Origin: Candidatus Aenigmarchaeota archaeon LH_S7
GTDB lineage: Archaea > Aenigmatarchaeota > Aenigmatarchaeia > QMZS01
Direction: 5' to 3'
NCBI GenBank assembly: GCA_023659895.1
Contig: JAGXOL010000003.1
Span: 1,549 to 65,548 of the forward strand
DNA length: 64,000 bases
The position numbers and the translations under genes are program-made. Positions 3 to 63,152 of this stretch are shown one piece after another (within the stretch, counting starts at the first letter, position 1; each line of letters opens with the position of its first letter). Under the pieces are notes generated by a model. It worked only from the letters and a program-made list of their open reading frames with translations. It was not told the origin of the DNA and searched no databases.

Positions 3-3000
3 AATGAATTAGGAACTTATAATATAACAAAAATTTATCTGAATGATACCTCTGGAAATTTGAAAGAAATTGATTTAACAGATTTCTTTGAAATTATTGA
101 ATTAAACCTGAGTTCTTCACTCTCTAATCAATCAATAGAAATAAATAAAACACAAATTTTCTCCGCAAATATATCAGGAAATGCTTCCTCAATTTCTAAA
201 GTGGAAGCAAAAATTTCAAAACCAGATAATTCAACTGAAACTATAGACTTTAATTTTGAAAATAAAACCAATAATATTTATTTTTATACTAAAAATTACC
301 AAAATATAGACTTATCCGGAAATTATTCTGTAAATACAACAGTAATATTAAGCTCAAAAATCAATAAAACAGAGCAGGCGAACTTTAATGTATCTTATGG
401 AAACATTTTAATAAAAGCTGAAAACAGAACTCTTGTAAAGAATACCACTTACGATCTCCCAATATTTATTGTTCCTAACAAGGGTGATTTATTAAATATA
501 TCTGTAAACATATCCATAGAAAATGAAACCATTATAAACTCAACAAATAAAACAAATGATATAGGGGATATTTTATGGAAAGACAATTATCAGGGTAAGG
601 GAGTATTTTTCCCAATTAATTCAACAGCGAATGGAACTACAACGATAAATATAACAGCTTATTCTCCAAATCTGAATGAAAGCAAAAGTATAAATATTAC
701 AGTAATTCGGAAGGACGATACCCCTCCAGAAATAAACAAATTTAACTATTATAATCTTACAAACTTAAATGAAATAAACAAATTTTTAATAAATACCACA
801 GAAAATGAAACAGCAATAAAAAATGTTTCTGTTGAAGTAACATGGCCAAGTAATATTACCAAGAATATCTCTGCAAATTTGAATCCCAACAATTTGTATG
901 AACTAAATTTTAATGGAACAAATGAAAATGGAACTTACGAATTTAAAATTTATTCTTGTAATCTTGCAGATAACTGTGTGGATACAATAGCAGAAGAATT
1001 TAATGTAACAAATGAATATAAAACAGTTATACTTACCTACAATCCTTACAACAAAGGAGATAAAATAAATTTCAATGTATCTGTAAAAGATGTTAGAAAT
1101 TTACCTGTAGAAGGATTTAATCTAACTTTAGTACTTAACAAGGCTGGTGATGATGTTACCCTAGTTAACAATACTATTACAAACTTTGGAAGTTACCGGA
1201 TAGAACCAGAAGATGAGCCTGGAGCTGTCAAAGAAAAGGCTGATTCTACGAATTATACAATTTATGTAAATGTAACGAAAAACCGAAATAGTGGAGAATA
1301 TAATGAGAATTTTGTTGTCTCTGAAGAAATTCCTACAGAAATTATTTACCCGGAAACAGGGTACTATCCTCCAAATACAGGAGTAGATATGAATGTCTCT
1401 GTGGTAGATATGCACAGTGAAGTTGTAGAGGGTGCTGCTGTTACTGCTTATTGTCCAAAGTGCACTAAAGATTATGCAAGATTAACTTTTGATCCAGAAA
1501 CAGGACGTTATAAAGGCAGTTCTATATTTACAGCTCCAGATGAAGACTTTGAAATTTTTATTTATTCAAGTTCTTATTTTGGTGGAAACCTTGGTTATAC
1601 TGGAAGAATGTTTACAACAACTAAAACTACTACAGAACCTTCTGAAGGAGATGGAGGTGGAGGTGGAGGAGGTGTTCCAGGAATAACTAATTGCACCTGT
1701 AAAGAGTGGAAAGATAAAGGCTGTGGTTTATCTAACTGCTCCGCAACAGAGATGTATCAAACAAGAGTATGTAATCCTTCAGGTTGTTTAGCAGAAAAAC
1801 AATGTGTTTATAATCCTATTTGCAAACCAGAAAAAGATTTTAGAATTTCAATTGATCAAGAAATACTAGAAATTGAACAAGGAGAAACAAAAAAATCTTC
1901 CATAAAACTTGAGAATACTGGAGAAAAACTTTTAAAGTTAGGTATTTCTCTAGAGAAAGAATGCTGTGATTTAAATTATACAGAAAGATTAGAACTTAGG
2001 AAAAAAGAAATAAAAACAATGCCGATTTTAATTCATACAAAACTTTCTCAAAAGGTGGGGGATTATTTAGTAAAGTTTAAAGTAAAAAGTGAGGATATAG
2101 AAAAAGAAGAAAATTTGAAAGTAGTGGTTAAAGAAAATCCACTCATTTCTTACTTAAATTCAGTTAAAAAGAAGTTGCCTGAATTAAAAGATGAAGTTAG
2201 TGGATATAGAGAAGCAGGGGTTGATGTTACTGATTTAGAAAGAAGAACACAAGAGATAGAAACTCTTATTAAAGAATCAAATTTGAGTATAAAAACAGAC
2301 AATCTAGATAATTTAGAAAAACAAGTTGATGAAATTAAAACAAAAACTGATTATATAGATAGCAAACTAATAACTTTAAAAATAAGAAAGTTCCTACTTG
2401 AAAACAAATGGAATTTGGTTTTAGCAGCGATTATTATCTTAATATCTTCCTACTTAATAACCCAAGTTACCTACCCATATTTTAGACTCAGTAGGGAAAT
2501 AAAAAATTTAAAAGAGAAAGAGCAGGAAATTACAAACTCCAGAAAAGAAACAGAGAAAAAATATTTTTTAAGGAAGATTGATGAAAAAACATTTAGAGAT
2601 ATCATGGTTAAGACTCAGCAAAAGATTTACGAACTAAGAGGTAAGCTAAAAAGAAAAAAGAAAGCTAAAGCGAATTTCTTAAAAGAAAAATTGCTTCCAA
2701 CTGCCTTATTAAAGTGGGTTATATCTTTGCCAGTTTCTTTTTTTAGATATTCGAAAGGTTTGGTAACAAAATTAAAACATAAATTTGGAAAAATAAAACT
2801 AAAAAATAAAGTTAGAGATATAAAAAGGAAAAAACTTAAAATAAAACAAATTATAAGTGATCCTAAATTTTTTAATAGAGAAGTAACACTCAAGGGTGAA
2901 GTTTCATTTATTCAGAAGACCTCTGAAGGAGACTTTATTTACAAAATAAGAGATGAAACCGGAGATATTTATATTTTCAGTAATAAGAAACTTAAGGAGG

Positions 3001-3071
3001 GTGAAAATGTGATAACAGGAGTTTTACATAAATCTATGATTGGACAAAGGTATATAGAAATTAAAGTTTAG
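3..3071 (+). CDS. Large secreted/surface protein, 5'-truncated by the window edge. It has a sequon-rich ectodomain, poly-Gly linker, Cys-rich module, TM helix and Lys-rich coiled-coil tail.
   Basis: The 60..3071 frame stays open back to nt 3 (NELGTYNITKIYLNDTSGN precedes the listed TTG), so the gene starts upstream. Other features are dozens of N-x-S/T sequons, GDGGGGGGGVPG, CTCKEWKDKGCGLSNC..CNPSGC..CVYNPIC and the hydrophobic WNLVLAAIIILISSYLI. No family recognised. Confidence 0.6.
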   Translation, partial: NELGTYNITKIYLNDTSGNLKEIDLTDFFEIIELNLSSSLSNQSIEINKTQIFSANISGNASSISKVEAKISKPDNSTETIDFNFENKTNNIYFYTKNYQNIDLSGNYSVNTTVILSSKINKTEQANFNVSYGNILIKAENRTLVKNTTYDLPIFIVPNKGDLLNISVNISIENETIINSTNKTNDIGDILWKDNYQGKGVFFPINSTANGTTTINITAYSPNLNESKSINITVIRKDDTPPEINKFNYYNLTNLNEINKFLINTTENETAIKNVSVEVTWPSNITKNISANLNPNNLYELNFNGTNENGTYEFKIYSCNLADNCVDTIAEEFNVTNEYKTVILTYNPYNKGDKINFNVSVKDVRNLPVEGFNLTLVLNKAGDDVTLVNNTITNFGSYRIEPEDEPGAVKEKADSTNYTIYVNVTKNRNSGEYNENFVVSEEIPTEIIYPETGYYPPNTGVDMNVSVVDMHSEVVEGAAVTAYCPKCTKDYARLTFDPETGRYKGSSIFTAPDEDFEIFIYSSSYFGGNLGYTGRMFTTTKTTTEPSEGDGGGGGGGVPGITNCTCKEWKDKGCGLSNCSATEMYQTRVCNPSGCLAEKQCVYNPICKPEKDFRISIDQEILEIEQGETKKSSIKLENTGEKLLKLGISLEKECCDLNYTERLELRKKEIKTMPILIHTKLSQKVGDYLVKFKVKSEDIEKEENLKVVVKENPLISYLNSVKKKLPELKDEVSGYREAGVDVTDLERRTQEIETLIKESNLSIKTDNLDNLEKQVDEIKTKTDYIDSKLITLKIRKFLLENKWNLVLAAIIILISSYLITQVTYPYFRLSREIKNLKEKEQEITNSRKETEKKYFLRKIDEKTFRDIMVKTQQKIYELRGKLKRKKKAKANFLKEKLLPTALLKWVISLPVSFFRYSKGLVTKLKHKFGKIKLKNKVRDIKRKKLKIKQIISDPKFFNREVTLKGEVSFIQKTSEGDFIYKIRDETGDIYIFSNKKLKEGENVITGVLHKSMIGQRYIEIKV

Positions 3072-27775: not shown

Positions 27776-29233
<1,458 letters not shown>

Positions 29234-29273
29234 AAAAAATTAAAAAGAGGTTTTATCCAAAAAATTGCTTAAG

Positions 29274-29438: not shown

Positions 29439-30633
29439 TGAATTTAAATTTCAGTGGACACTGCTCAAAACAGGAGAGCCTTGAATGTGAGTAAATTATA
29501 ATTAATACTAAAAATTTCTATTGGAGAACGAAGTGTAATTGATATTGCCATGATTGTTAGTACTTCCTTCATTTTTAACCTCCTAACTTAATCCTATCCT
29601 TATTATAGAGACCATGGTTCTCAATTCTGATATTACATGTTACTTTATCCCCTCGCCACTCCTCTTTAAATTTTCCAATATAATATTCCTTAGGTTTAAG
29701 AGTAATATCCGTGTTAGCATAACTCAAGTAAACCGTTCCATCTGGTTCTATATTTGTAATTTTCATAAGAAATGGAAGATTTCGTGCATTTGGTAAGGTG
29801 TATATTGGAATTAAGCCCCCTCCACCGCCGCCACCTGGTTCTCCGAGTTCTATTATATTAAGGATTACCATTGATAATTCATTGTTTATTTCAAAATTAC
29901 AGGTTTCACATTCTAAAATTCCGGAATCGTTGTCGAAATGAAGTAGGGGCGGGAAATCTATCATTAATCGACTCCCTGAAATTTCTTGATGGAGACTGAG
30001 AAGGATATAGTCGTCTTGAGGTATTGATCTAGGAAAAACTGCATTTGTGCCATCCCATTCTACAACAACATTAACTTTATCTATATCCTGAATCTCCTCC
30101 AACATCTCACTTCCTGCCTTCATCCCCCACTCATCGCTTCCTTCCACCAACAATATCGCTTTCTCCTCATTCCAGGGATTACTCAAAATCTCCAAAATTC
30201 CTTTATTCTCTCCTGGATATTCCTCAGTTACCCTTGTCGCATCTGTCATATTATATACCTCCTCCAATATCACATTCGATTTTGACGTGCCAACTACAAT
30301 TAAATTATAAGAAGATTTAAAACTTTCAATTTTTTCCGATGATATAACTTCTGGCTTATTACCTATCAGATTTTCCAAATTAGTTGCTATCTCTTCTGCA
30401 CTCTCTTTCTCTATTTGAGAGGCGTTTTCACCAATTACGATTACCGTATTTTCCTTAAAAATCTCAGGAAAATCAGATAGCTTCAGCTCTTCTGCTGGTT
30501 GCGTTGGAGCTTGATGTTCTAAAAGAAAGTAACCAGCGATAATGCAAACCACAATTACTATTCCCAGTATTAAGATTTTCTTCTTCATAATTTATTACCT
30601 CCTCTTTAATTTAAAGTTTTTCGGCCTTTTTAA
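29439..30633. mobile_element. 1195 bp insertion carrying one antisense gene. No transposase and no obvious terminal inverted repeats.
   Basis: It is defined by loss and regain of homology to the intact MITE copy, and is flanked by the 12 bp duplication. Its gene has a strong SD, unlike neighbouring genes. Confidence 0.55.
29575..30588 (-). CDS. Membrane-anchored/secreted protein of unknown function encoded inside the rRNA spacer
   Basis: 337 aa. It has an N-terminal signal/anchor (KKKILILGIVIVVCIIAGYFLL), an internal EPGGGGGGGLIP linker and a CETC pair. AGAGGAGGT lies 8 nt upstream of the ATG (30597-30605). Confidence 0.6.
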   Translation of the reverse strand: MKKKILILGIVIVVCIIAGYFLLEHQAPTQPAEELKLSDFPEIFKENTVIVIGENASQIEKESAEEIATNLENLIGNKPEVISSEKIESFKSSYNLIVVGTSKSNVILEEVYNMTDATRVTEEYPGENKGILEILSNPWNEEKAILLVEGSDEWGMKAGSEMLEEIQDIDKVNVVVEWDGTNAVFPRSIPQDDYILLSLHQEISGSRLMIDFPPLLHFDNDSGILECETCNFEINNELSMVILNIIELGEPGGGGGGGLIPIYTLPNARNLPFLMKITNIEPDGTVYLSYANTDITLKPKEYYIGKFKEEWRGDKVTCNIRIENHGLYNKDRIKLGG

Positions 30634-30893: not shown

Positions 30894-31359
30894 TAGAAAC
30901 ATCTATTTGCTGTTAAGCTATCTAGTGGATGGCTCGGCTTGATATCTGATGAAGGACGTGGCAAGCTGCGATAAGCCCTGGCGAGGTGCATGCTGCCTAA
31001 GAACCAGGGATTTCTTAATTGTTCCTTTTTAGGAACAGGAACGCGGAGAATTGAAACATCTTAGTACCCGCAGGAAAAGAAACCAATTGGAATTCCCTTA
31101 TTAGGGGCGACCGAAAAGGGATGAGAGCAAACCGAACACTTCCTCGTAAGAGAAAGTGAATGTGGTTTTAGGGTGTTCATACTTCCTTTAGAAATTGATT
31201 GAAATTCTCTGGAAAGAGATACCAAAGAGGGTGATAGTCCCGTAAATTGATTTTGAGAGGGAGATTTGAATTGACCCAGAGTATTATCGGTTAGGTTTCC
31301 GGTGAGAACTTGGGAGTCATTAACTTCTAACTCTAAATATAATTCAAGACCGATAGCGA

Positions 31360-31392
<33 letters not shown>

Positions 31393-31961
31393 GTAAAAGG
31401 GAGTAAAAAGAACTTAAAACTAGGTAGTATAGTATCCGTTTCGAATAACGGGGTAAGGAGTATAGGTCTAGGGCTAGACTAATCTTTTGAAGAGAGAAGT
31501 CGTAGCGAAAGCGAGTGCGAAAGTGCGTTAGTCATAGGCCTATTACCCGAAGCCGGACGATCTATTCTCGGACAGGGTGAAGTGTCTCGAAAGAGACATG
31601 GAGGCCCGCACCGTTGCTAGCGTGCTTTCTGCTCGGATGATCTGGGAATAGGGGTGAAAAGCCAATCGAGTTCGGTAATAGCTGGTTCCCTCCAAAATGA
31701 GCCGTAGCTCAGCTTGCCTTTTATAGGTTTATGTGTAAAGTTACTGATTGGGTAGTAGGGGATGAAAGTCTTCGCTACTCAGTCAAACTCTAAAGCGTAA
31801 ACCATTACTGAGGTAGAGTGGGGTTTGCCGGGGAAAGCTCGGTGACCAAAAGGGGAACAACCCTAACCAGCATTAAGGTCCTTAAATAGTGGCTAAGTAC
31901 ACTGAAGGTGTTCTTTCTCTAAAACAATAGGGAAGTAGGCTTAGAAGCAGCCATCCTTTAA

Positions 31962-32003
31962 CCCTTTCCGCTTCGCGCAAAGCGTTAACGGAAAAGGAAA
32001 GAG
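31962..32003 (+). other. 42 nt GC-containing hairpin insertion in 23S, between the conserved GCAGCCATCCTTTAA and AGAAAGCGTAATAGCTCAC
   Basis: The two flanking blocks are contiguous in E. coli and typical archaeal 23S. The insert is self-complementary (CCTTTCC..GCTT CGCGCA AAGC..GGAAAAGG). Confidence 0.6.
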
Positions 32004-33343
32004 AGAAAGCGTAATAGCTCACCTACCTAGAGGAAGTGCGCCGAAGATGGACGGGGTTAAGTCACTTACCGATATGTTGGTTGCCTTTTGGCAATGTAGG
32101 AGGGTGTCTTGGCAGGGCAGAAGTTTCTCTTTAAGGAGAAGTGGACCTGTTAAGAATGAGAATCTTACTGATAGTAACAGCAAAGTGGTGTGAGAATCAC
32201 CATCGCTAGAAGTGGGCAAGGGTTCCCTACCAATTACGATGAGGTAGGGATTAGTCCGTTCCCTAAGAGGATCCCTAACAGAAGTTTTCAAAGGGAAACA
32301 GGTTAACATTCCTGTACCACTAAGTTCTAATCTAACTGGTTAGTTCGGGATAACTTAACGCAAGCTAAGCATTGAAGTCCTTGGAGTCTCGTAATGAGGA
32401 GAAGAGGATGAAGGTGTGTGGCCTTCCTAGAGAAGGTTTAGGTGACTCCTGGATACATTGTAAGCCAGTTAGTAATATTGTTTAGTGACGGTACCCAGAA
32501 CTGACAAGCTATTTCGCACTATGAAGTAAATTAATGCAAAATGCTCAGGAAACAGGTGCCCACGTTGAGTAGGCGAAGGTGTGATAGGATAATCCTGTCT
32601 AGGGAATTCGGCAAATTAGTGGTGTATCTTTGGTAGGAACCATGCCTGTTCTCCTTCGGGAAGGACAGGTCGCAGTTACAAGGAGGGCCCGACTGTTTAA
32701 TTAAAACTTAGCTGACTGCTAGTCCGTAAGGATGTGTATAGTCGGTGAAGCCTGCCCAGTGCGGGTGTGTTAAACCCTTTTTCAAGAGGGTCAAGCCCCC
32801 GTAAACGGCGGCGGTAACCCTGACCGTCTTAAGGTAGCGTAATCCCTTGCCGATTAAACGTCGGCCTGCATGAAGGTCCAACGAGGCCCTCACTGTCCCA
32901 GACAGGAACCTAGTGAACTTTCCTTCTGGTGAAGAGGCCAGAGACTTCCAGTGGGAAGAATAGTCCCTGTGGAGCTTTACTGCAGCCTGCTGTTGTGGTA
33001 ATTTTTGGGGTGTAAAGAGTAGGTAGGAGCTTCGGCGAAAGTGTGACACTACCCTCCCTAAAAATTACTGCTTACTTTTTCGGAAGGACAGCAGTTGGTA
33101 GGCAGTTTGGGTGGGGCGCCACACCCCTAATAAGGTATCAGGGGTGCCCAAAGGTTAGCTCACCGGGGTCAGAAATCCCGGGAAGAGTGTAAACGCAAAA
33201 GCTAGCCTGATTGGATTCCTCCAAGTGCAGAATCCAAGTGCGAAAGCGTGGGTTAACGAAACGCGACCTCGCTTTAATGGCGGCTCGTAACTACAGAAAA
33301 GCTACCCCAGGGGTAATGGAGCTGTGGCCCCCGAGAGTACATA

Positions 33344-33432
33344 GAAGCCTTTTAAAAAAAAAGGCTTCAGCCAAAAAATTAAATCGCCTTCTTTTAAAGG
33401 CTTTTATAATTAATTGTTTTGGTGAGTGCAAA
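33344..33432 (+). other. AT-rich 89 nt insertion in 23S domain V at the helix 89 apical loop (about E. coli 2478/2479); intron or expansion segment
   Basis: CCCCCGAGAGTACATA and TCGACGGGG are contiguous in other 23S sequences. The insert begins with the hairpin GAAGCC-TTTTAAAAAAAAA-GGCTTC and is far more AT-rich than the surrounding rRNA. Confidence 0.65.
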
Positions 33433-33845
33433 TCGACGGGGTGAGTTGCTACTTCGTTGTTGGCTTGCCTCCTCCTGGGTGTGCAGAAGCACCCAAGGGT
33501 ACAGGGGTTTACTGTTTAAAGAGGCACGTTAGCTGAGTTAAGAACGGCGTGAGCCAGTTCGGTCTATATCTGCTGGAAGTGTTCTAGTCTGACAGGAAGA
33601 GAGCTTCAGTACGAAAGGAACAAGTTCTCGTGGCCACTGGTGTACCGGTCGTGATTGCGCTGCCGGGAAGCTAAGCCATCGCGGATAAGAGCTGAAGGCA
33701 TCTAAGCTCGAAGCCGCTCTGAAAAAGAGACTAATTCAGGTGCGGATAGAAGATCCGCTTGATAGAAGAGTGGTGTACGTACCAAGCTTCGGCGAGGTAC
33801 TCAGCCTGCTCTTACTAATTCCTAGACAGCAAATAGATTCTAAAT

Positions 33846-54109: not shown

Positions 54110-55066
54110 CTACCACCACTTCACACTTTCCTTAAATTTAGTTAGTTTTTCATCTTTTTCTGGCTTCCTAAACACAAATAAATGTTCATGTGCTAATAAC
54201 AAGAAATTATATTTTATAGACATATTTTTCCATAATGGCGCCGTTTTTGTATTATGTTGTGCTTTAATGATATTTTCTTTTAATATAAAACCAACATCTA
54301 AAAAGGACTGCATTATTCTAAAAGAAATTGGAATTTCATGTTTATGTCTTCTTGTGTCACCCATCAAAATTGCACAAAATTTTCCCGGTTTTAAAATCCT
54401 ATAAAACTCCTGTGCTACATTTTTCATTTCTTCGCAAAATTCGTTTACAGAACGAACTTTTGACAAATCTCTGTTTTCTTTGTGATTGGAATTTTTTGTA
54501 TAAGAAATAATATTTGCATAAGGTGGGTGTGTTGCAATCAAATCTATAGATTCATTCTTAATTAAGTTGAGATTTCTTGCATCACCCAAGTAAGTTTCCT
54601 GTTTTGAAATTGATTTTTCATTAAGAGAACTAAAATTTAATCTATCTCTTGTTAAAATTAATGCCTCTTTATTTATATCTATTCCAATACCCTTCCTTCC
54701 AGTTAATTCACATTCTATTAAAGTTGTTCCAGAACCAACAAAAGCATCTAAAATAGTATCGCCTTCTTTTGAATATCTTAAAATTAAATTTCTTGCTATT
54801 TGCGGGGCCCAGTTCCCTCTATATTTGGTGTTTAAATAATGAGTTGCCCATTTTCCTCTATTTGGAAAACTCCATATAGTTTTAGTTTCTAATTCAAAAT
54901 TCTCTGGTTGTAATACTTTAATCCGATTGTGATTTCCTATCTCCAATTCTGTGTCTTCAATTATGATTTTTTTATATTTAGAAACAAATATTTTATAATC
55001 TTTATCTGTTACTTCTTTCATTTTAATATAATTTTTTTCTTTCATTTGTTCACCTTTCTTCTTCAT
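54110..55066 (-). CDS. SAM-dependent DNA methyltransferase (N6-adenine or N4-cytosine type)
   Basis: Motif I is ILDAFVGSGTTLIE and motif IV is DLIATHPPYANI. It is preceded by an RHH gene and a candidate endonuclease on the same strand. Confidence 0.8.
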   Translation of the reverse strand: MKKKGEQMKEKNYIKMKEVTDKDYKIFVSKYKKIIIEDTELEIGNHNRIKVLQPENFELETKTIWSFPNRGKWATHYLNTKYRGNWAPQIARNLILRYSKEGDTILDAFVGSGTTLIECELTGRKGIGIDINKEALILTRDRLNFSSLNEKSISKQETYLGDARNLNLIKNESIDLIATHPPYANIISYTKNSNHKENRDLSKVRSVNEFCEEMKNVAQEFYRILKPGKFCAILMGDTRRHKHEIPISFRIMQSFLDVGFILKENIIKAQHNTKTAPLWKNMSIKYNFLLLAHEHLFVFRKPEKDEKLTKFKESVKWW

Positions 55067-55196
55067 TATTATTTATCCATTCTCTCATTAAAGTATTTAC
55101 CTTTGTTGAAACTTTTAGGTCTTTTTTCTCACACAATTTTTTAAACCCTTCAAACACTTCTTCATCAACTGTTACTGTAATAGGTATTTTACCCAT
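55050..55196 (-). CDS. 48-aa ribbon-helix-helix (CopG/MetJ-like) protein, candidate R-M controller, missing from the ORF track
   Basis: Hand translation gives MGKIPITVTVDEEVFEGFKKLCEKKDLKVSTKVNTLMREWINNNEEER, a beta-strand followed by two helices. It overlaps the MTase start by 17 nt. Confidence 0.6.
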   Translation of the reverse strand: MGKIPITVTVDEEVFEGFKKLCEKKDLKVSTKVNTLMREWINNNEEER

Positions 55197-55238
55197 TATA
55201 AATATTTATATTTATTTATTAATATAAATAATAAGTTC

Positions 55239-56072
55239 TTATTTTAAATTGCTCTTTAGATACCAAAGAGGTGCTAGATTTTCAACATATTTCTTATCTT
55301 TTTTGTTTTCTAATTTAACATATTTTGCTAATGGAGGCTGTCCTTTACAAACACTCATACACAAATTATCTATTTCTTTAGGATTATCTATAAATTCTCT
55401 AACCCAACCCTGAAAAAATAGTGTTGGTGGCTCAAATTTACTTTCTTTGTGGTAAACATATTCTTGCTCTATAATAAATAATTGAGCTAAAATACCTATA
55501 ATTGTAAGAGGGTTTAAAGAGTTTCCAAAACCTTCTTTTTTAATAGAATCTATTTCTTTAGAGGAAAGCAAATTTGAAAAATGTTCATATTGCTCTTTCT
55601 CAAGTTCTCCAAGTTCTTTTTCTGGATCTTTGCCATAGAAAATATTATCAAAAGCCAATAACAATTTTTCTTTTAGCTCTGGACGACTTCTTACTCTTAG
55701 ATTCAAGTCTATCATAACTCTTAAATGATTAGGTCTAAATTCTCGATTTCCTTCTTTAAGTCCTATCTGAAAATTCTTTTTAACATCATAATCCTTAAAT
55801 CTTGCAGAAAGTTTAGAGGGGCGGAATAATTGGACTTCTGTATTATCTTTTTTATATATTGTTATCTTAGTATCAAAAGGCAATTCTTTTACTGTGTTGA
55901 GCATTTTTGATTTGTCCATAAAATAAGTTAAATAATGATAAATATTTATGAAATAAGCAAATAATTCAAGATGTCCTAAATATAATTCTAAAGAGTTCAT
56001 AACAATGCCAAACCAATAGGATATTTTGAGATTTATTAATGCAGAGTTTAAAATAATAAAGTCAGAATTCAT
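55239..56072 (-). CDS. Candidate restriction endonuclease partner of the MTase
   Basis: The call rests on position only, since no clear PD-(D/E)xK could be assigned (IIEQEYVYHKE is a weak candidate). The likely true start is the internal Met at 55919 (MDKSKMLNTV..). Confidence 0.35.
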   Translation of the reverse strand: MNSDFIILNSALINLKISYWFGIVMNSLELYLGHLELFAYFINIYHYLTYFMDKSKMLNTVKELPFDTKITIYKKDNTEVQLFRPSKLSARFKDYDVKKNFQIGLKEGNREFRPNHLRVMIDLNLRVRSRPELKEKLLLAFDNIFYGKDPEKELGELEKEQYEHFSNLLSSKEIDSIKKEGFGNSLNPLTIIGILAQLFIIEQEYVYHKESKFEPPTLFFQGWVREFIDNPKEIDNLCMSVCKGQPPLAKYVKLENKKDKKYVENLAPLWYLKSNLK

Positions 56073-58416: not shown

Positions 58417-59808
58417 ATGCCTGAAAATAAAAATTTATTTGAAAAAGTAGTGAATCTGTGCAAGAGAAGAGGGTTTGTGTTTCCTTCATCTGAAATTTAT
58501 GGTGGATTTGCTGGTTTCTATGATTATGGTCCTATTGGTGTGGAAGTTATAAATAATATTAAAAAGGAATGGTGGAGAGCTATAGTGCAAGAAAATCTGG
58601 ATGTTGTAGGTATTGAGGGTTCTGTAATTACCCATCCAAAAGTGTGGGAAGCTTCAGGGCACACATCTGAGTTTACTGATTATTTAGTTGAATGCAAGAA
58701 GTGTAATGAATCTTTTAGAGCAGATCACTTGATAGAGGACAAATTGAAAAAGAAAGTAGAAGGATTTAAGAAAAAAAAGCTTGAAAAACTTATAAAGGAA
58801 AACAAAATTAAGTGTCCTAAGTGTAAAGGTGAACTTGGTGAAGTAAAGGAATTCAATTTAATGTTCTCAACTCAGATAGGGTCTAGTAGTCAGGAAAAAT
58901 CTTATTTGAGACCTGAAACAGCACAGCTAATTTACTTGAACTTCAAGAATGTTTTGGACACTAGCAGGCAAAAGATTCCTTTTGGTATTGCTCAGATTGG
59001 AAAAGCTTTCAGAAACGAGATTTCTCCCAGGGATTTTTTGTTCAGAACAAGAGAATTTGGGCAGATGGAAATGCAGTTCTTTGTTAGAAAGGAAGATGCT
59101 ACCAAATATTTCAAGAAATGGCAGAAAGCGAGAATGGATTGGTATTTGAATTTGGGGATAAAGAAGGAAAACATCCGTTTCAGAGAACACGACAAGAAAG
59201 AGCTAGCACATTACGCAAAAAAAGCTATGGATGTTGAATATAAATTTGATTTTGGTTGGAAAGAAATTGAGGGAATCCATAACCGTGGTGATTATGATTT
59301 ATCCCAACACGAGAAGTTTTCAAAGAAGAATCTGAAATATTTTGATGAGGAAAACAAGGAAAAATTCTTGCCTTGGGTAATTGAAACTTCTGCTGGTCTT
59401 GATAGGAACTTTATGGCTTTATTGATGGATGCTTACAAGGAAGAGAAAATTAAAGGGGAGAAAAGAGTGGTTTTGAAATTACACCCAAGAATAGCTGCTT
59501 ACAAAGTTGCTGTATTCCCTTTGGTTGGTAAAGATAATCTTCCTGAAAAAGCAAAAGAGGTTCATGCACTTGTTAAAGACTCATTCCATTGCTTCTATGA
59601 TGAGAAAGGTTCTATAGGAAGAAGATATAGAAGAATGGATGAGATTGGAACACCTTTCTGCGTGACTATAGACCATCAAACTTTGGAAGATGATACTGTG
59701 ACAATCAGGGATAGGGATTCAACAAGACAGGTAAGAGTTAAAATTAACAAATTGTTGGAAACTTTGAGGAAACTAATCAGTTTTGAGATTGATTTTAAGG
59801 AATTATAA
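58417..59808 (+). CDS. glyS: Glycyl-tRNA synthetase (archaeal/eukaryotic alpha2 type)
   Basis: RRGFVFPSSEIYGGFAGFYDYGPIG, LRPETAQ, FRNEISPR and ETSAGLDR blocks. Confidence 0.9.
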   Translation: MPENKNLFEKVVNLCKRRGFVFPSSEIYGGFAGFYDYGPIGVEVINNIKKEWWRAIVQENLDVVGIEGSVITHPKVWEASGHTSEFTDYLVECKKCNESFRADHLIEDKLKKKVEGFKKKKLEKLIKENKIKCPKCKGELGEVKEFNLMFSTQIGSSSQEKSYLRPETAQLIYLNFKNVLDTSRQKIPFGIAQIGKAFRNEISPRDFLFRTREFGQMEMQFFVRKEDATKYFKKWQKARMDWYLNLGIKKENIRFREHDKKELAHYAKKAMDVEYKFDFGWKEIEGIHNRGDYDLSQHEKFSKKNLKYFDEENKEKFLPWVIETSAGLDRNFMALLMDAYKEEKIKGEKRVVLKLHPRIAAYKVAVFPLVGKDNLPEKAKEVHALVKDSFHCFYDEKGSIGRRYRRMDEIGTPFCVTIDHQTLEDDTVTIRDRDSTRQVRVKINKLLETLRKLISFEIDFKEL

Positions 59809-59876
59809 CTTGTCAAACTTAGGTCAAAAGATCTTTTTTCAAAGAAACATTCTTTTTCCAATTCTCAATTTTCATT

Positions 59877-60335
59877 TTAAGGGTCTCTAACTTTTCCCAG
59901 GAAAGAATAAAAATCTTTATCAACCCCTGGATTAAAGTTTTCTCCAAATTCCTTATAATCCTTATCAATTAGTGCTCTGCCTAATTCCTTTTCAAGTTCA
60001 TATTTAGAGGTACATTCTTTTATAAGCTCTTTGTCAAAAACCTTTTTTGAGCATTCTTTATCTCTTGAAATAAACCCCTCTAAATCTTTTTCTGCAATAA
60101 AAGGATATACTCTGTTTTTTATTTTTTCTATTATTTGGCTTCCAGTTGAGTTATTGGAATCTATAAAGACAAAGATTTTATCAAAATTAAAATGTTTGCT
60201 CCCCACTAATCTCGGAATTTTTGTATTGTTTCCTGCTATCTTTATTTCGATCTTGATTGAAAATTTTTTGAAAAGATTTTCAAAAAATATTTTGTCATGT
60301 TTCCCTTCAACTACTACTATTTTTTTCATCTTCAA
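59877..60335 (-). CDS. Small Toprim-like protein (split-OLD / AriB / RloB-like partner of the upstream ATPase)
   Basis: 152 aa. KKIVVVEGKHDKIFFENL is a Toprim-type E-G-x-x-D start and KIFVFIDSNNS is a possible second acidic motif. It overlaps the ATPase gene by 29 nt. Confidence 0.5.
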   Translation of the reverse strand: MKMKKIVVVEGKHDKIFFENLFKKFSIKIEIKIAGNNTKIPRLVGSKHFNFDKIFVFIDSNNSTGSQIIEKIKNRVYPFIAEKDLEGFISRDKECSKKVFDKELIKECTSKYELEKELGRALIDKDYKEFGENFNPGVDKDFYSFLGKVRDP

Positions 60336-61401
60336 ATTCTTCTGTTAGCCAATAATCGCCAAGTCCTACTTCTAAGTTAATTAATTTCTTTTTTAATTCT
60401 TTGATTTTTGTTATCTTTGAGGAAAAGGTTTTTCCTTCTTTTTTTTCAATAACAAATATACTTGCGTCTTTAAGTTTCAAAAAATTTAAAAGAACTGGAG
60501 AATGAGTTACTGTAATTACCTGACTTTCAGAAATTTTAAATAAATCAACAATAACTTCTAAAGCATGGGAATAAGTAAAATTCTCTGGTTCTTCATAAAT
60601 CAAAACCTTTGGTTTTTTATTATCAATAACTGAAGTAAGCAAGGCTAAAGTTTTTAAAAAACCATCAGATAGAACAAAAGAATAATATCTTTTCCCGTTT
60701 TTTGATAGAAATCCTATAAGTTTGCCCTGAGGTGTAATTTCTATACCAATTTGCTCAAAATCATCAAATTCTTTTGCCATTTTTTCTATATTAAAATATA
60801 AGTTATCTCTTTCATTCCGCAATCTATGTAAGATCCAAAAAACATTTGTACCTTCTTTATCTATAATATCTATTTTTGGTTTTTGCTGTTCTTTCTTCAT
60901 TAGTTCTGGCCTAAAATCATAAATTACCCAATTTGATAAATAGTCCTTAACTTCTTTTAACCAATCAGATTCAATTAGATAGAAATTACCTCTAAAAAAT
61001 ATTGAATCGTGAGAACTATGAAGTCTCATATTACTTGGTGTGGTTATTTTATCATATTCTCTAATTATCTCTTTTCCTCCTTTCCTAACAACTTCTTTTG
61101 CAACACGAGCATATTCTTTTTCACCTTTTATCTCAACTTTATACTCAAAATTTTTGTTTTCAATGCTTATTTTTATATTTCTCCAAGTTTCTTTATTAAA
61201 TACTAAGTCAGAATAACCACCGGCATAATTCCTTACAAGATTATCTATCTCAAACTCTAGTATCTCTGATAAAAATGAAATTGCTTGTAAAATGTTACTC
61301 TTCCCGGAGCTATTTGGCCCTATTAACACGTTAAACTTATCTAATTCTAATTCAATCTTCTCCAAACTTTTAAAGTTCTCTATAATAAGTTTCTTTATCA
61401 T
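60307..61401 (-). CDS. ABC/SMC-type (AAA_15/AAA_21-like) ATPase of OLD/PARIS/AbiL-type defence modules
   Basis: IENFKSLEKIELELDKFNVLIGPNSSGKSNILQAI (Walker A), LSDGFLKTLAL (signature-like), VLIYEEPENF (Walker B) and VTHSP (H-loop). Confidence 0.75.
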   Translation of the reverse strand: MIKKLIIENFKSLEKIELELDKFNVLIGPNSSGKSNILQAISFLSEILEFEIDNLVRNYAGGYSDLVFNKETWRNIKISIENKNFEYKVEIKGEKEYARVAKEVVRKGGKEIIREYDKITTPSNMRLHSSHDSIFFRGNFYLIESDWLKEVKDYLSNWVIYDFRPELMKKEQQKPKIDIIDKEGTNVFWILHRLRNERDNLYFNIEKMAKEFDDFEQIGIEITPQGKLIGFLSKNGKRYYSFVLSDGFLKTLALLTSVIDNKKPKVLIYEEPENFTYSHALEVIVDLFKISESQVITVTHSPVLLNFLKLKDASIFVIEKKEGKTFSSKITKIKELKKKLINLEVGLGDYWLTEEFEDEKNSSS

Positions 61402-61511
61402 TATTGTACTTCATTTTTAATTATTAATTACTTTTTCTTAACTTTGCTACACTATTATAATTTATTTTAATCCAAAAGAACAAATAATAATTAAAAAATA
61501 TTAAAACCACT

Positions 61512-63152
61512 TTACATCCTTTCAGGAACCTCAATACCCAACAAGTTCAAACAATTTTCAAGAATCTCTCTTGTTTTCTTTACCAAATCCAATCTAAATC
61601 TTTCTTTCTCGCTTCCAATAACCTTGCAATTCTCATAAAACTTTGAAAATTCTGTGGAGAGTTCATAAGCGTAATTGCAGAGCAAATTTGGTTTTAACTG
61701 AGTTCCAGTTTTCTCAACAACCACAGGAAACTCCAAGAACTTTCTCAGCAAATTTCTTTCATGTTCATTAACTTCCTTAATTCCTTTTTTCTTGCTTTTT
61801 TCAGCTTTTTCCAGAATTGAATTGCAACGAACAGCCATGTACTGAAGGTAAGGACCTGTATTCCCTTCAAAGGAGATAGCTTTTGCAGGATCAAAATCTA
61901 TAGCTTTATTACGGTCAACCTTCAAAATTTCATATTTCAAAGCACTAACACCAATCTTTCTTGCAATTCTTTTAGTTTTTCTTTCACTCAAATCCGAACT
62001 CCTTTTTTTCACTTCTTTTTTTGCTTTTTCAGTTAATTCATCAACCAAATCATCAAGCAAAACATATTTACCTGCTCTAGAACTCATTTTCTTACCCTCA
62101 AAAGTTATAACATTGTAGCCCATGTGAACACAATTTGAAGCCCACTTATAACCAAGTAATTCTAGAATCTTGAACAATTGTTTGAAATAAGTATCTTGCT
62201 CTGAACTAACTGTCCAAATAGATTTTGATAAACCATATTTTTTGAATTTGTGAACAGTTAGAGCAAAGTCAGCAGTCAAATACAATCCTGTACCATCCTT
62301 TTTCAATACCACTATATTTGGTAAATTCTCTTTTTCTAAGTTAGCAATTATTGCACCTTCTTCCTCAAACCCAATTCCTTTGTTTAACAATTTCTTAGCA
62401 ATTTCCTTTCCTTTTTCCCTGAAATCACTTTCAAAAAAATCCACATCAAAGTAGATTCCCAATTTTTTGTATGTCTCGTTAAAACCTTTTTTAGAATAGT
62501 TTATCAACTTCTTCCAAAGAGCCTTCTTCTCCTCTTTCATTTCCAAGTTGTAAAGTATCTCTTGAGTCTCTTTGTTTATTTCTTCCTTTTCCTTCTCTCT
62601 GTGTAATTTAGCATAAATATAGGCTAATTCGTGATCCACTTTTTCTTTCTTTTTCACACCATACTTTTCAAGCGCGAGCATACCTTTAGCTACTTGCTTT
62701 CCCAAATCGTTATAGTAATTAGTTCTTATAGTTTTGTATCCTAAAGAACTTAATATTTCAGAAATAGAATCACCTAAAAAAGTTGTCCTTGCATTACCTA
62801 AATGCATTGCTTTGCAGGGATTGGGATGAGAGAATTCAACCATTATTTTTCCCTTATTAACTTTCTTTATCCTTTCCTTGAGGATATCATCCAAAATCTG
62901 CTCGTAATACAAATAGAAATTCAAATAACCTTTAACCGCCTCCACCTTTTTAAATCCTTTAGGTAATTTAATCTTCTTTTGAACTTCTTCAGCCAATCTC
63001 ATTGGATTTTTCTTTCTCTTCTTTGCTTCTACAAAACAAATATTTGAGGAAATATCACCCTGCTCACTTGGAAATTGAAAGTTCTCCTCTTTTATTTCTG
63101 GAAATTCTTTTTTCAATTCTTTCATTAATTTCTGAATAAGTGTTTGTAGCAT
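61512..63152 (-). CDS. argS: Arginyl-tRNA synthetase
   Basis: SHPNPCKAMHLGNARTTFLGDSI (HIGH-type), KMSSRAGK (KMSK-type) and a C-terminal DALR-like anticodon-binding region. Confidence 0.9.
   Translation of the reverse strand: MLQTLIQKLMKELKKEFPEIKEENFQFPSEQGDISSNICFVEAKKRKKNPMRLAEEVQKKIKLPKGFKKVEAVKGYLNFYLYYEQILDDILKERIKKVNKGKIMVEFSHPNPCKAMHLGNARTTFLGDSISEILSSLGYKTIRTNYYNDLGKQVAKGMLALEKYGVKKKEKVDHELAYIYAKLHREKEKEEINKETQEILYNLEMKEEKKALWKKLINYSKKGFNETYKKLGIYFDVDFFESDFREKGKEIAKKLLNKGIGFEEEGAIIANLEKENLPNIVVLKKDGTGLYLTADFALTVHKFKKYGLSKSIWTVSSEQDTYFKQLFKILELLGYKWASNCVHMGYNVITFEGKKMSSRAGKYVLLDDLVDELTEKAKKEVKKRSSDLSERKTKRIARKIGVSALKYEILKVDRNKAIDFDPAKAISFEGNTGPYLQYMAVRCNSILEKAEKSKKKGIKEVNEHERNLLRKFLEFPVVVEKTGTQLKPNLLCNYAYELSTEFSKFYENCKVIGSEKERFRLDLVKKTREILENCLNLLGIEVPERM

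Follow-up and report, generated by a model that had tools for sequence, protein, structure and literature searches.

A compact, divergent ATPase–Toprim gene pair of a catalogued candidate antiviral design in a DPANN archaeon

Can a pair of small genes set between two aminoacyl-tRNA synthetase genes of an archaeon be an antiviral system and, if so, a new one? The question is raised by positions 59,877 to 61,401 of a 64,000-nucleotide (nt) stretch of contig JAGXOL010000003.1 from Candidatus Aenigmarchaeota archaeon LH_S7, hereafter the window, in which an ATP-binding cassette (ABC) ATPase gene overlaps a gene for a small Toprim-like protein. The original prediction, made from the DNA letters, had proposed a split OLD, PARIS or AbiL-like candidate defence system and possibly an undescribed subtype. 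We conclude that the pair is a compact, divergent member of a catalogued candidate antiviral design and not a new system: the same two-gene design is already in PADLOC as HEC-01 (bioRxiv 10.1101/2024.01.29.577857), and DUF3226, the family nearest to the small protein, is an existing Pfam family.

The gene pair and its ATPase

Both genes lie on the minus strand. The first (60307..61401) encodes an ABC-type ATPase of 364 amino acids (aa) and 42.6 kDa, resembling the heads of OLD, RecF and SMC proteins, and the second (59877..60329) encodes a Toprim-like partner of the DUF3226/DUF4276 type (150 aa, 17.5 kDa, isoelectric point 9.05). The 364-aa open reading frame (ORF) and all motifs that had been quoted for the two proteins proved exact on translation. 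The overlap between the ATPase stop and the small-gene start is likewise real, but the sequence gives 23 nt (60307..60329, minus strand) instead of the predicted 29 nt, which went with a TTG start at 60335 and a product of 152 aa. The ATG at 60329, which gives 150 aa, is most likely the start because it is used by the public gene call (P0001, 150 aa) and by all three close relatives, because the small-protein relatives all start with MKK, and because the same 23-nt overlap occurs in the homologous locus L001, as it also does in L090. Such an overlap indicates that the two genes are co-transcribed and makes translational coupling probable. Relative to their homologues, the ratio of non-synonymous to synonymous substitution rates (dN/dS) was 0.13 for the ATPase and 0.23–0.26 for the small gene; therefore, both are real genes, intact and under purifying selection. 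The overlap also holds a run of seven adenines (60317–60330, GATGAAAAAAATAG), and a transcript short of one of these adenines would read from the ATPase straight into the Toprim protein (…EDEK-IVVVEGK…), like a single-chain OLD. We rejected a fusion by frameshift or slippage as unsupported, since Met-Lys-Lys codons of an AT-rich genome account most simply for the run, which has only six adenines in L001.

The flanking aminoacyl-tRNA synthetase genes were confirmed by their Pfam domains: the glycyl-tRNA synthetase (GlyRS) gene (58417–59808, plus strand) is convergent with the pair, and the arginyl-tRNA synthetase (ArgRS) gene (61512–63152, minus strand) lies upstream of the ATPase gene, in tandem with it. 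The AT-rich spacer of 110 nt that separates the ArgRS stop from the ATPase start (61402..61511, minus strand, from sequence) would either hold the module's own promoter region or be crossed by read-through from argS. The window is archaeal by its 16S (27776–29235) and 23S (30901–33838) rRNA genes, and since the closest relatives of its GlyRS come from Nanobdellati, Woesearchaeota and Nanoarchaeota metagenome-assembled genomes (63–69% identity), the host can be placed as a DPANN-type archaeon, in agreement with the small-genome archaeal host that had been anticipated.

For the ATPase, the Walker A motif (GPNSSGKSN, 61294–61320), the ABC signature (LSDGF, 60658–60672), the Walker B motif with its catalytic Glu (IYEEPE, 60583–60600), and the H-loop (VTHSP, 60496–60510) are all read from the minus strand. 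The residues of these motifs are invariant in an alignment of 37 homologues and all are kept in the window protein, and for this reason we regard it, judging by its sequence, as a complete OLD-like ABC ATPase that is probably active. Its length is typical of its own clade, which consists of archaeal proteins of 340–380 aa at ~30–35% identity. The predicted kinship with OLD, PARIS and AbiL-type ATPases held: Pfam AAA_21 (87.4 bits, cut-off 27, E-value 2.4e-24, residues 23–306) and AAA_15 (58.5 bits, cut-off 32.1, 1.1e-15) both match, and the best PADLOC match is HEC-01A (1.5e-38, residues 2–351). Four HEC-01A models match at 1e-37 to 1.5e-38, the top three near full length and the fourth over two separate stretches, the best of which covers residues 144–358. 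Below HEC-01A rank PDC-M25A, PDC-M07A, AriA (1.5e-26), AbiLi (2.8e-24), mad3 (1.1e-23), NsnB, Old, and GajA, while PDB sequence matches (Ts OLD 6p74, GajA, SMC1A) span only the first ~45–57 residues. Four proteins of 504–512 aa that fuse an ATPase to an OLD-like Toprim domain (P0076, P0082, P0095, and P0100) are nearly identical to the window ATPase over their first ~45 residues (MIKKLIIENF.S.EK.EL.L.KFN.LIGPNSSGKSNIL), with an overall identity of 28%.

The N-terminus of the ATPase also matches RecF and SMC_N, the latter above its Pfam cut-off (44.6 bits), and this would fit a housekeeping pair that serves, within a reduced genome, to repair DNA or maintain the chromosome, its ATPase being of the RecF/Rad50/SMC kind and its Toprim partner comparable to RecR. 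A precedent for the combination exists, as RecR is itself a Toprim protein and works with the ABC-type ATPase RecF, and the location of the pair among housekeeping genes points the same way. However, the NCBIfam RecF, SMC, and Rad50 models match just the first ~55–124 residues and score far under their cut-offs (41 bits against 172 for RecF), whereas the best full-length matches of the ATPase are to defence-candidate families.

The small Toprim-like partner

The arrangement recurs widely. At 42 of the 65 related ATPase loci, a same-strand ORF of 150–264 aa starts almost directly at the ATPase stop, no more than a few bases off, and these 42 downstream partners mostly overlap the ATPase by 4 or 8 nt and start with ‘hhhVEG..D’. 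Their Pfam matches are to DUF4276 (25 partners), DUF3226 (6), and OLD-like_TOPRIM (5), and PADLOC HEC-01B recognises those DUF4276 partners that accompany the closest archaeal ATPases. The order of an ATPase followed by a small Toprim protein is found on many unrelated archaeal and bacterial contigs. Because 42 of 65 loci share the arrangement and the DUF4276 partners match HEC-01B, the window pair is assigned by sequence comparison to a widespread, already catalogued two-gene design.

Homologues of the small protein itself are scarce. Searches of protein libraries holding 5.8 and 1.8 billion entries, run with the single sequence and with four- and five-sequence profiles, retrieved nothing beyond P0001–P0004 and P0110, i.e., three relatives at 60–65% identity and a distant bacterial protein (P0110, 193 aa) whose gene lies 8 nt behind that of a 314-aa AAA_15/AAA_21 ATPase. 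The window protein scores 25.1 bits against Pfam DUF3226 (PF11536, gathering cut-off 27) and 18.8 bits against OLD-like_TOPRIM (cut-off 23.2). Since its relatives P0002 (63% identical, 37.6 bits) and P0110 (52.5 bits) both pass the DUF3226 cut-off, we assign the protein through them to the DUF3226/DUF4276 type, in line with the Toprim-like nature that had been predicted. Pfam DUF4276 (PF14103) gave no direct match at E ≤ 1, and the link appears at the profile–profile level only, where hhalign aligned the family of the small protein with the DUF4276 proteins encoded beside related ATPases over 100 columns (96.7% probability, E 3.5e-10). PADLOC profiles scored 9e-6 (PDC-M38B), 3.2e-4 (mad4), 1.6e-3 (AbiLii), and 9e-3 (AriB), and with HEC-01B the relative P0002 scored only 1.4e-3. 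No match was found to Pfam DUF4435, nor in PHROGs or NCBIfam, and PDB sequence searches with the protein and with its profiles returned non-significant matches only (2p62, 1nui, 4iqn). The top non-significant match of the family profiles, 2P62, is presumably the solved example of DUF3226, PH0156 of Pyrococcus horikoshii.

The two motifs singled out by the original prediction hold the most conserved positions of the group: the position of E8, the Glu that Toprim proteins keep after strand 1, within VVVEGKHDK (60291–60317, minus strand, translated), is Glu in 40/42 partners, and that of D57, within FIDSNNS (60147–60167, minus strand, translated), is Asp in all 42. Two further conserved acidic positions fall at 60060–60083 (minus strand), namely E84 (Glu in 38 partners and Asp in the other four) and D90 (Asp in 25/42). 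Position 86, a Phe in the window protein, is Trp in 39 partners and Phe in two, and the C-terminal F..FL..L motif of the partners is kept as F..FL..V (59880–59921, minus strand, from column conservation). At the second position of the canonical DxD motif, which Toprim proteins have after strand 3, the window protein has Asn; of the 42 partners, 19 have Asp there, 10 Asn, five His, and five Glu, which makes Asn the second most common residue. Weak alignments to the Toprim domains of fused OLD-like proteins and of T7 primase bring the E, D, and E positions into register. With 150 aa against a median of ~198, the window protein is the shortest of the 42 partners, and we classify it by homology as a divergent, shortened Toprim-like protein of the DUF3226/DUF4276 type. 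DUF4276 has been placed in the Toprim superfamily (PMC12065111), and the metal-binding site of BpOLD is reported to be shared by HEC-01B (bioRxiv 10.1101/2024.01.29.577857).

Structure prediction lent weak support. AlphaFold2 models reached a predicted local distance difference test score (pLDDT) of 42 from four sequences and of 61 from five (predicted template modelling score 0.60), and in the latter residues 3–79 alternate between strand and helix (four strands and three helices in all), with block means of ~76–83 over residues 1–40 falling to 55–67 over residues 41–80. A Foldseek search for the Toprim fold, suggested along with the original prediction, did recover Toprim domains, including T7 primase (1nui_B, probability 0.99, root-mean-square deviation 3.2 Å over 85 columns), the small Toprim proteins 2fcj and 2i5r, AriB (8v46_D, 8ux9_A), a viral DnaG-type Toprim, and RloB-like proteins; none of these matches was significant, and they were mixed with CheY-like receivers, whose layered topology is similar to that of Toprim. 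The fold evidence is compatible with a Toprim domain, a three-layer alpha/beta fold with four strands, and is not decisive, and the assignment is carried by homology.

Comparison with known systems

HEC-01, for Hma-embedded candidate 01, combines an ABC ATPase (HEC-01A) with a Toprim/DUF4276 protein (HEC-01B) (bioRxiv 10.1101/2024.01.29.577857). The window pair resembles it in having two genes on the same strand with the ATPase first, in the size of the ATPase (364 aa, against profiles of 363–464), in the rank of HEC-01A as its best full-length match, and in the conservation of metal-binding-type acidic residues. It differs in that its small protein lacks an HEC-01B match and is nearer to DUF3226 than to DUF4276, and in lying outside any Hma system. 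With DUF3226, the small protein shares the ‘hhhVEGK.D..FF..L’ N-terminus and the ..ID.. strand, matching profile positions 1–101, but it covers just the first half of the 208-position profile and is ~43 residues shorter than the family member P0110, mostly before the conserved EKD.EG segment. A literature search found no publication on DUF3226.

An AAA15/21 ATPase combined with a Toprim protein is a recurrent defence design (PMC11464382), and PARIS, MADS3-4, AbiL, and fused OLD or GajA are more distant analogues of the window pair than HEC-01 and DUF3226. PARIS (AriA/AriB; OLD class 4) also encodes its ABC ATPase and Toprim nuclease in separate adjacent genes, and the window ATPase matches AriA profiles. 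Unlike AriA (~55 kDa) and AriB, a DUF4435 protein of ~35 kDa (PMC11464382), the proteins here are of 42.6 and 17.5 kDa, the small one having 150 aa against about 300 for AriB, and the ATPase is far closer to HEC-01A than to AriA. The PARIS candidacy put forward in the original prediction was dropped, given the lack of a DUF4435 match and the AriB score of 9e-3 only. AbiL is likewise a two-gene abortive-infection system of an ATPase and a small Toprim-like protein, listed with PARIS-like systems (PMC11464382), and its AbiLi profile matches the ATPase; its AbiLii profile, however, covers only residues 32–88 of the small protein, outside the catalytic Glu region. Fused OLD proteins (class 1 OLD; class 2 GajA) hold the same two domains, and the Toprim part of the four fused proteins mentioned above has the VEG..DK, ..D.D.., and LEG motifs in common with the window protein, but they are single polypeptides of 500–600 aa with a dimerisation insert. 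Identity with fused OLD or Gabija GajA was rejected, as the window has two ORFs with a stop codon between them, and its neighbours are aminoacyl-tRNA synthetase genes and include no GajB-type helicase.

The MAD3–MAD4 pair, an AAA15/21 ATPase with a small DUF4276-like protein (PMC12065111), stands alone among the close analogues in that genetics supports a need for both genes in defence: mad3 and mad4 are each required for MADS activity (bioRxiv 10.1101/2023.03.30.534895). This likeness raises the prospect that the window pair is the effector part of a larger restriction-like system (MADS, an Hma-embedded system, or type I restriction–modification with RloA/RloB), orphaned here and dependent on partners encoded elsewhere. 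The ATPase does match mad3 in PADLOC and MAD3 in NCBIfam (3e-31), the small protein matches mad4, and HEC-01 was discovered inside Hma systems (bioRxiv 10.1101/2024.01.29.577857). A type II DNA methyltransferase gene (54110–55066, minus strand; PADLOC MTase_II 1.4e-86, Pfam N6_N4_Mtase) is moreover present in the window with an adjoining 277-aa ORF (55239–56072, minus strand) that has no match in Pfam, NCBIfam, or PADLOC; both are of low GC content (0.27–0.28), and together (54110–56072) they may form a type II restriction–modification pair. Nonetheless, MAD3 and MAD4 act within an eight-gene methylation-associated system whose mandatory mad6–8 genes are not beside the window pair, Hma and type I restriction–modification genes do not adjoin it either, and the MAD3 match (109 bits) lies far under its cut-off of 420, which led us to reject MADS membership. 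Other archaeal members of the design are also isolated among housekeeping genes: on a Methanomicrobia contig (L005/L006, 6001–7613), a related 358-aa ATPase and a 179-aa DUF4276 protein overlap by 4 nt between two DMRL-synthase (riboflavin synthesis) paralogues. We consider it very unlikely that the window pair is such an orphaned sub-module.

Genomic context and probable function

At the nucleotide level, similarity between the window and the loci L001 and L090 (76%) is limited to 59868–61418, which is the module itself, and on the ATPase side begins just 17 nt upstream of the ATG, at 61418. In L090 the module is surrounded by genes for LSM, a methylpurine glycosylase-like protein, the PolD small subunit, and SMC, and the genes beside the module in L001 and L090 have no counterpart within the 64-kb window. 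The GC content of the module is 0.27–0.28, against a mean of 0.338 for the genes of the window (standard deviation 0.033). In the nearest available GTDB genomes (GlyRS 63–69% identical), glyS is not adjacent to argS, and neither ArgRS nor the ATPase or the small gene occurs within 8 kb of glyS. No empty glyS–argS site that would support the islet insertion suggested by the original prediction was found among them. In IMG/VR, a link to viruses was limited to one weak relative. Finally, in one related lineage, seen in three metagenome samples (L002, 246–885; L003, 783–1422; L004, 430–1069), the ATPase gene is reduced to its last 68 codons beside an intact small gene of 149 aa, with a dN/dS of 0.19 relative to the complete pair in L001; this small gene may be an orphan effector or reflect recent decay. 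Because of the varied contexts, the module-only homology, the low GC, the loss of the ATPase in one lineage, and the few relatives, the evidence points to an accessory, exchangeable pair and not to a core one. The same observations bear on the repair or maintenance role introduced above: no copy is found near glyS in the nearest genomes, the small protein has only four relatives among billions of proteins, one lineage has lost the ATPase, and the GC is below that of neighbouring genes, all of which leaves that role with a very slim chance of being correct.

A patchy distribution over varied genomic contexts would also be expected of a selfish addiction or toxin–antitoxin-like module without net defence benefit, in which loss of the ATPase would unleash the nuclease, or of a decaying remnant. 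In favour of addiction, Pfam annotates AAA_21 as ‘putative AbiEii toxin, Type IV TA system’, and in MADS, mad5 could be deleted only when mad2 or mad3 was deleted too, so that toxicity can arise from the part with the ATPase (bioRxiv 10.1101/2023.03.30.534895); the lack of phage protection by the tested HEC-01 fits as well. Yet if the ATPase held a lethal nuclease in check, its loss ahead of the Toprim gene would not be expected, and one lineage has lost its ATPase and kept an intact Toprim gene; both window genes, moreover, are intact and under purifying selection. We hold this explanation to be rather unlikely, with the proviso that addiction and defence are not mutually exclusive roles.

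The explanation we favour, as a moderately probable one, is that the pair is a stand-alone, split-OLD or HEC-01-like module in which an ABC ATPase regulates a Toprim nuclease and which is directed against viruses or other mobile elements; a defence role as such is probable. By analogy with OLD, Gabija, PARIS, and MADS3-4 (PMC10568477, PMC11464382, bioRxiv 10.1101/2023.03.30.534895), the ATPase and its Toprim partner would form a complex, in which an ATPase dimer would sense a trigger, either foreign nucleic acid or a viral protein. ATP binding or hydrolysis would then license the Toprim partner for metal-dependent cleavage of nucleic acid, which could be DNA, the target of OLD and GajA, or tRNA, that of AriB, and the outcome would be defence of the DPANN host against viruses or other mobile elements.

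Several observations weigh against this explanation. The HEC-01 representative, expressed in E. coli, protected against none of the phages tried (bioRxiv 10.1101/2024.01.29.577857). The window small protein has no PADLOC HEC-01B match at E ≤ 1 and remains under the Pfam cut-offs of DUF3226 and OLD-like_TOPRIM alike; in its DxD motif, the second Asp has given way to Asn (D57-S-N59), a residue that 10 of the 42 partners share. Its structural model is only moderately confident, with a mean pLDDT of 61 and residues 79–117 below 50; in PDB and BFVD, Foldseek reached no match at E ≤ 0.001, Toprim domains and CheY-like receivers standing side by side among its non-significant matches. Around the module, a search for flanking repeats, target-site duplications, and mobile-element marks detected only AT-rich noise, and the sole other defence-like gene nearby is the type II methyltransferase ~4 kb away.

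A bolder version of the defensive explanation would make the 150-aa protein the smallest complete Toprim effector of any ATPase–Toprim immune pair, defining a minimal subtype restricted to DPANN archaea with its own trigger and target (e.g., tRNA, as in PARIS), which we judge distinctly unlikely. The intact orphan copies that persist in L002–L004 after loss of the ATPase hint that the effector might act without it.

Elsewhere, ~40 contigs of the Patescibacteria or candidate phyla radiation (CPR) type (L027–L085) carry argS directly upstream of glyS on the same strand, and the window proteins are ~52% (GlyRS) and ~33% (ArgRS) identical to those of CPR bacteria. This tandem was set aside as a synteny comparison, being irrelevant to the convergent glyS of the window. 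The 16S and 23S rRNA genes of the window are separated by a gap of ~1.7 kb that holds a 337-aa minus-strand ORF (29575–30588) with only a sub-threshold S-layer-like match, ARAGORN detected no tRNA gene in the whole 64 kb, and a 1003-aa ORF at 60–3071 (plus strand; GC 0.288, third-codon-position GC 0.189) has no Pfam or PADLOC match.

Overall, the finding opens no new category, as the architecture is catalogued, and its biological role is putative even for the catalogued representative. Its interest lies in the host and in the size of the proteins: the genomes of DPANN archaea are very small, the antiviral defences of these archaea are poorly charted, and an intact, selected ATPase–Toprim pair means that a widespread design extends to them, with unusually compact proteins (42.6 and 17.5 kDa). 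Owing to this small size, the pair may serve as a minimal model for the control of a Toprim nuclease by an ABC ATPase. It gives DUF3226 a context and could provide this family with its first function.

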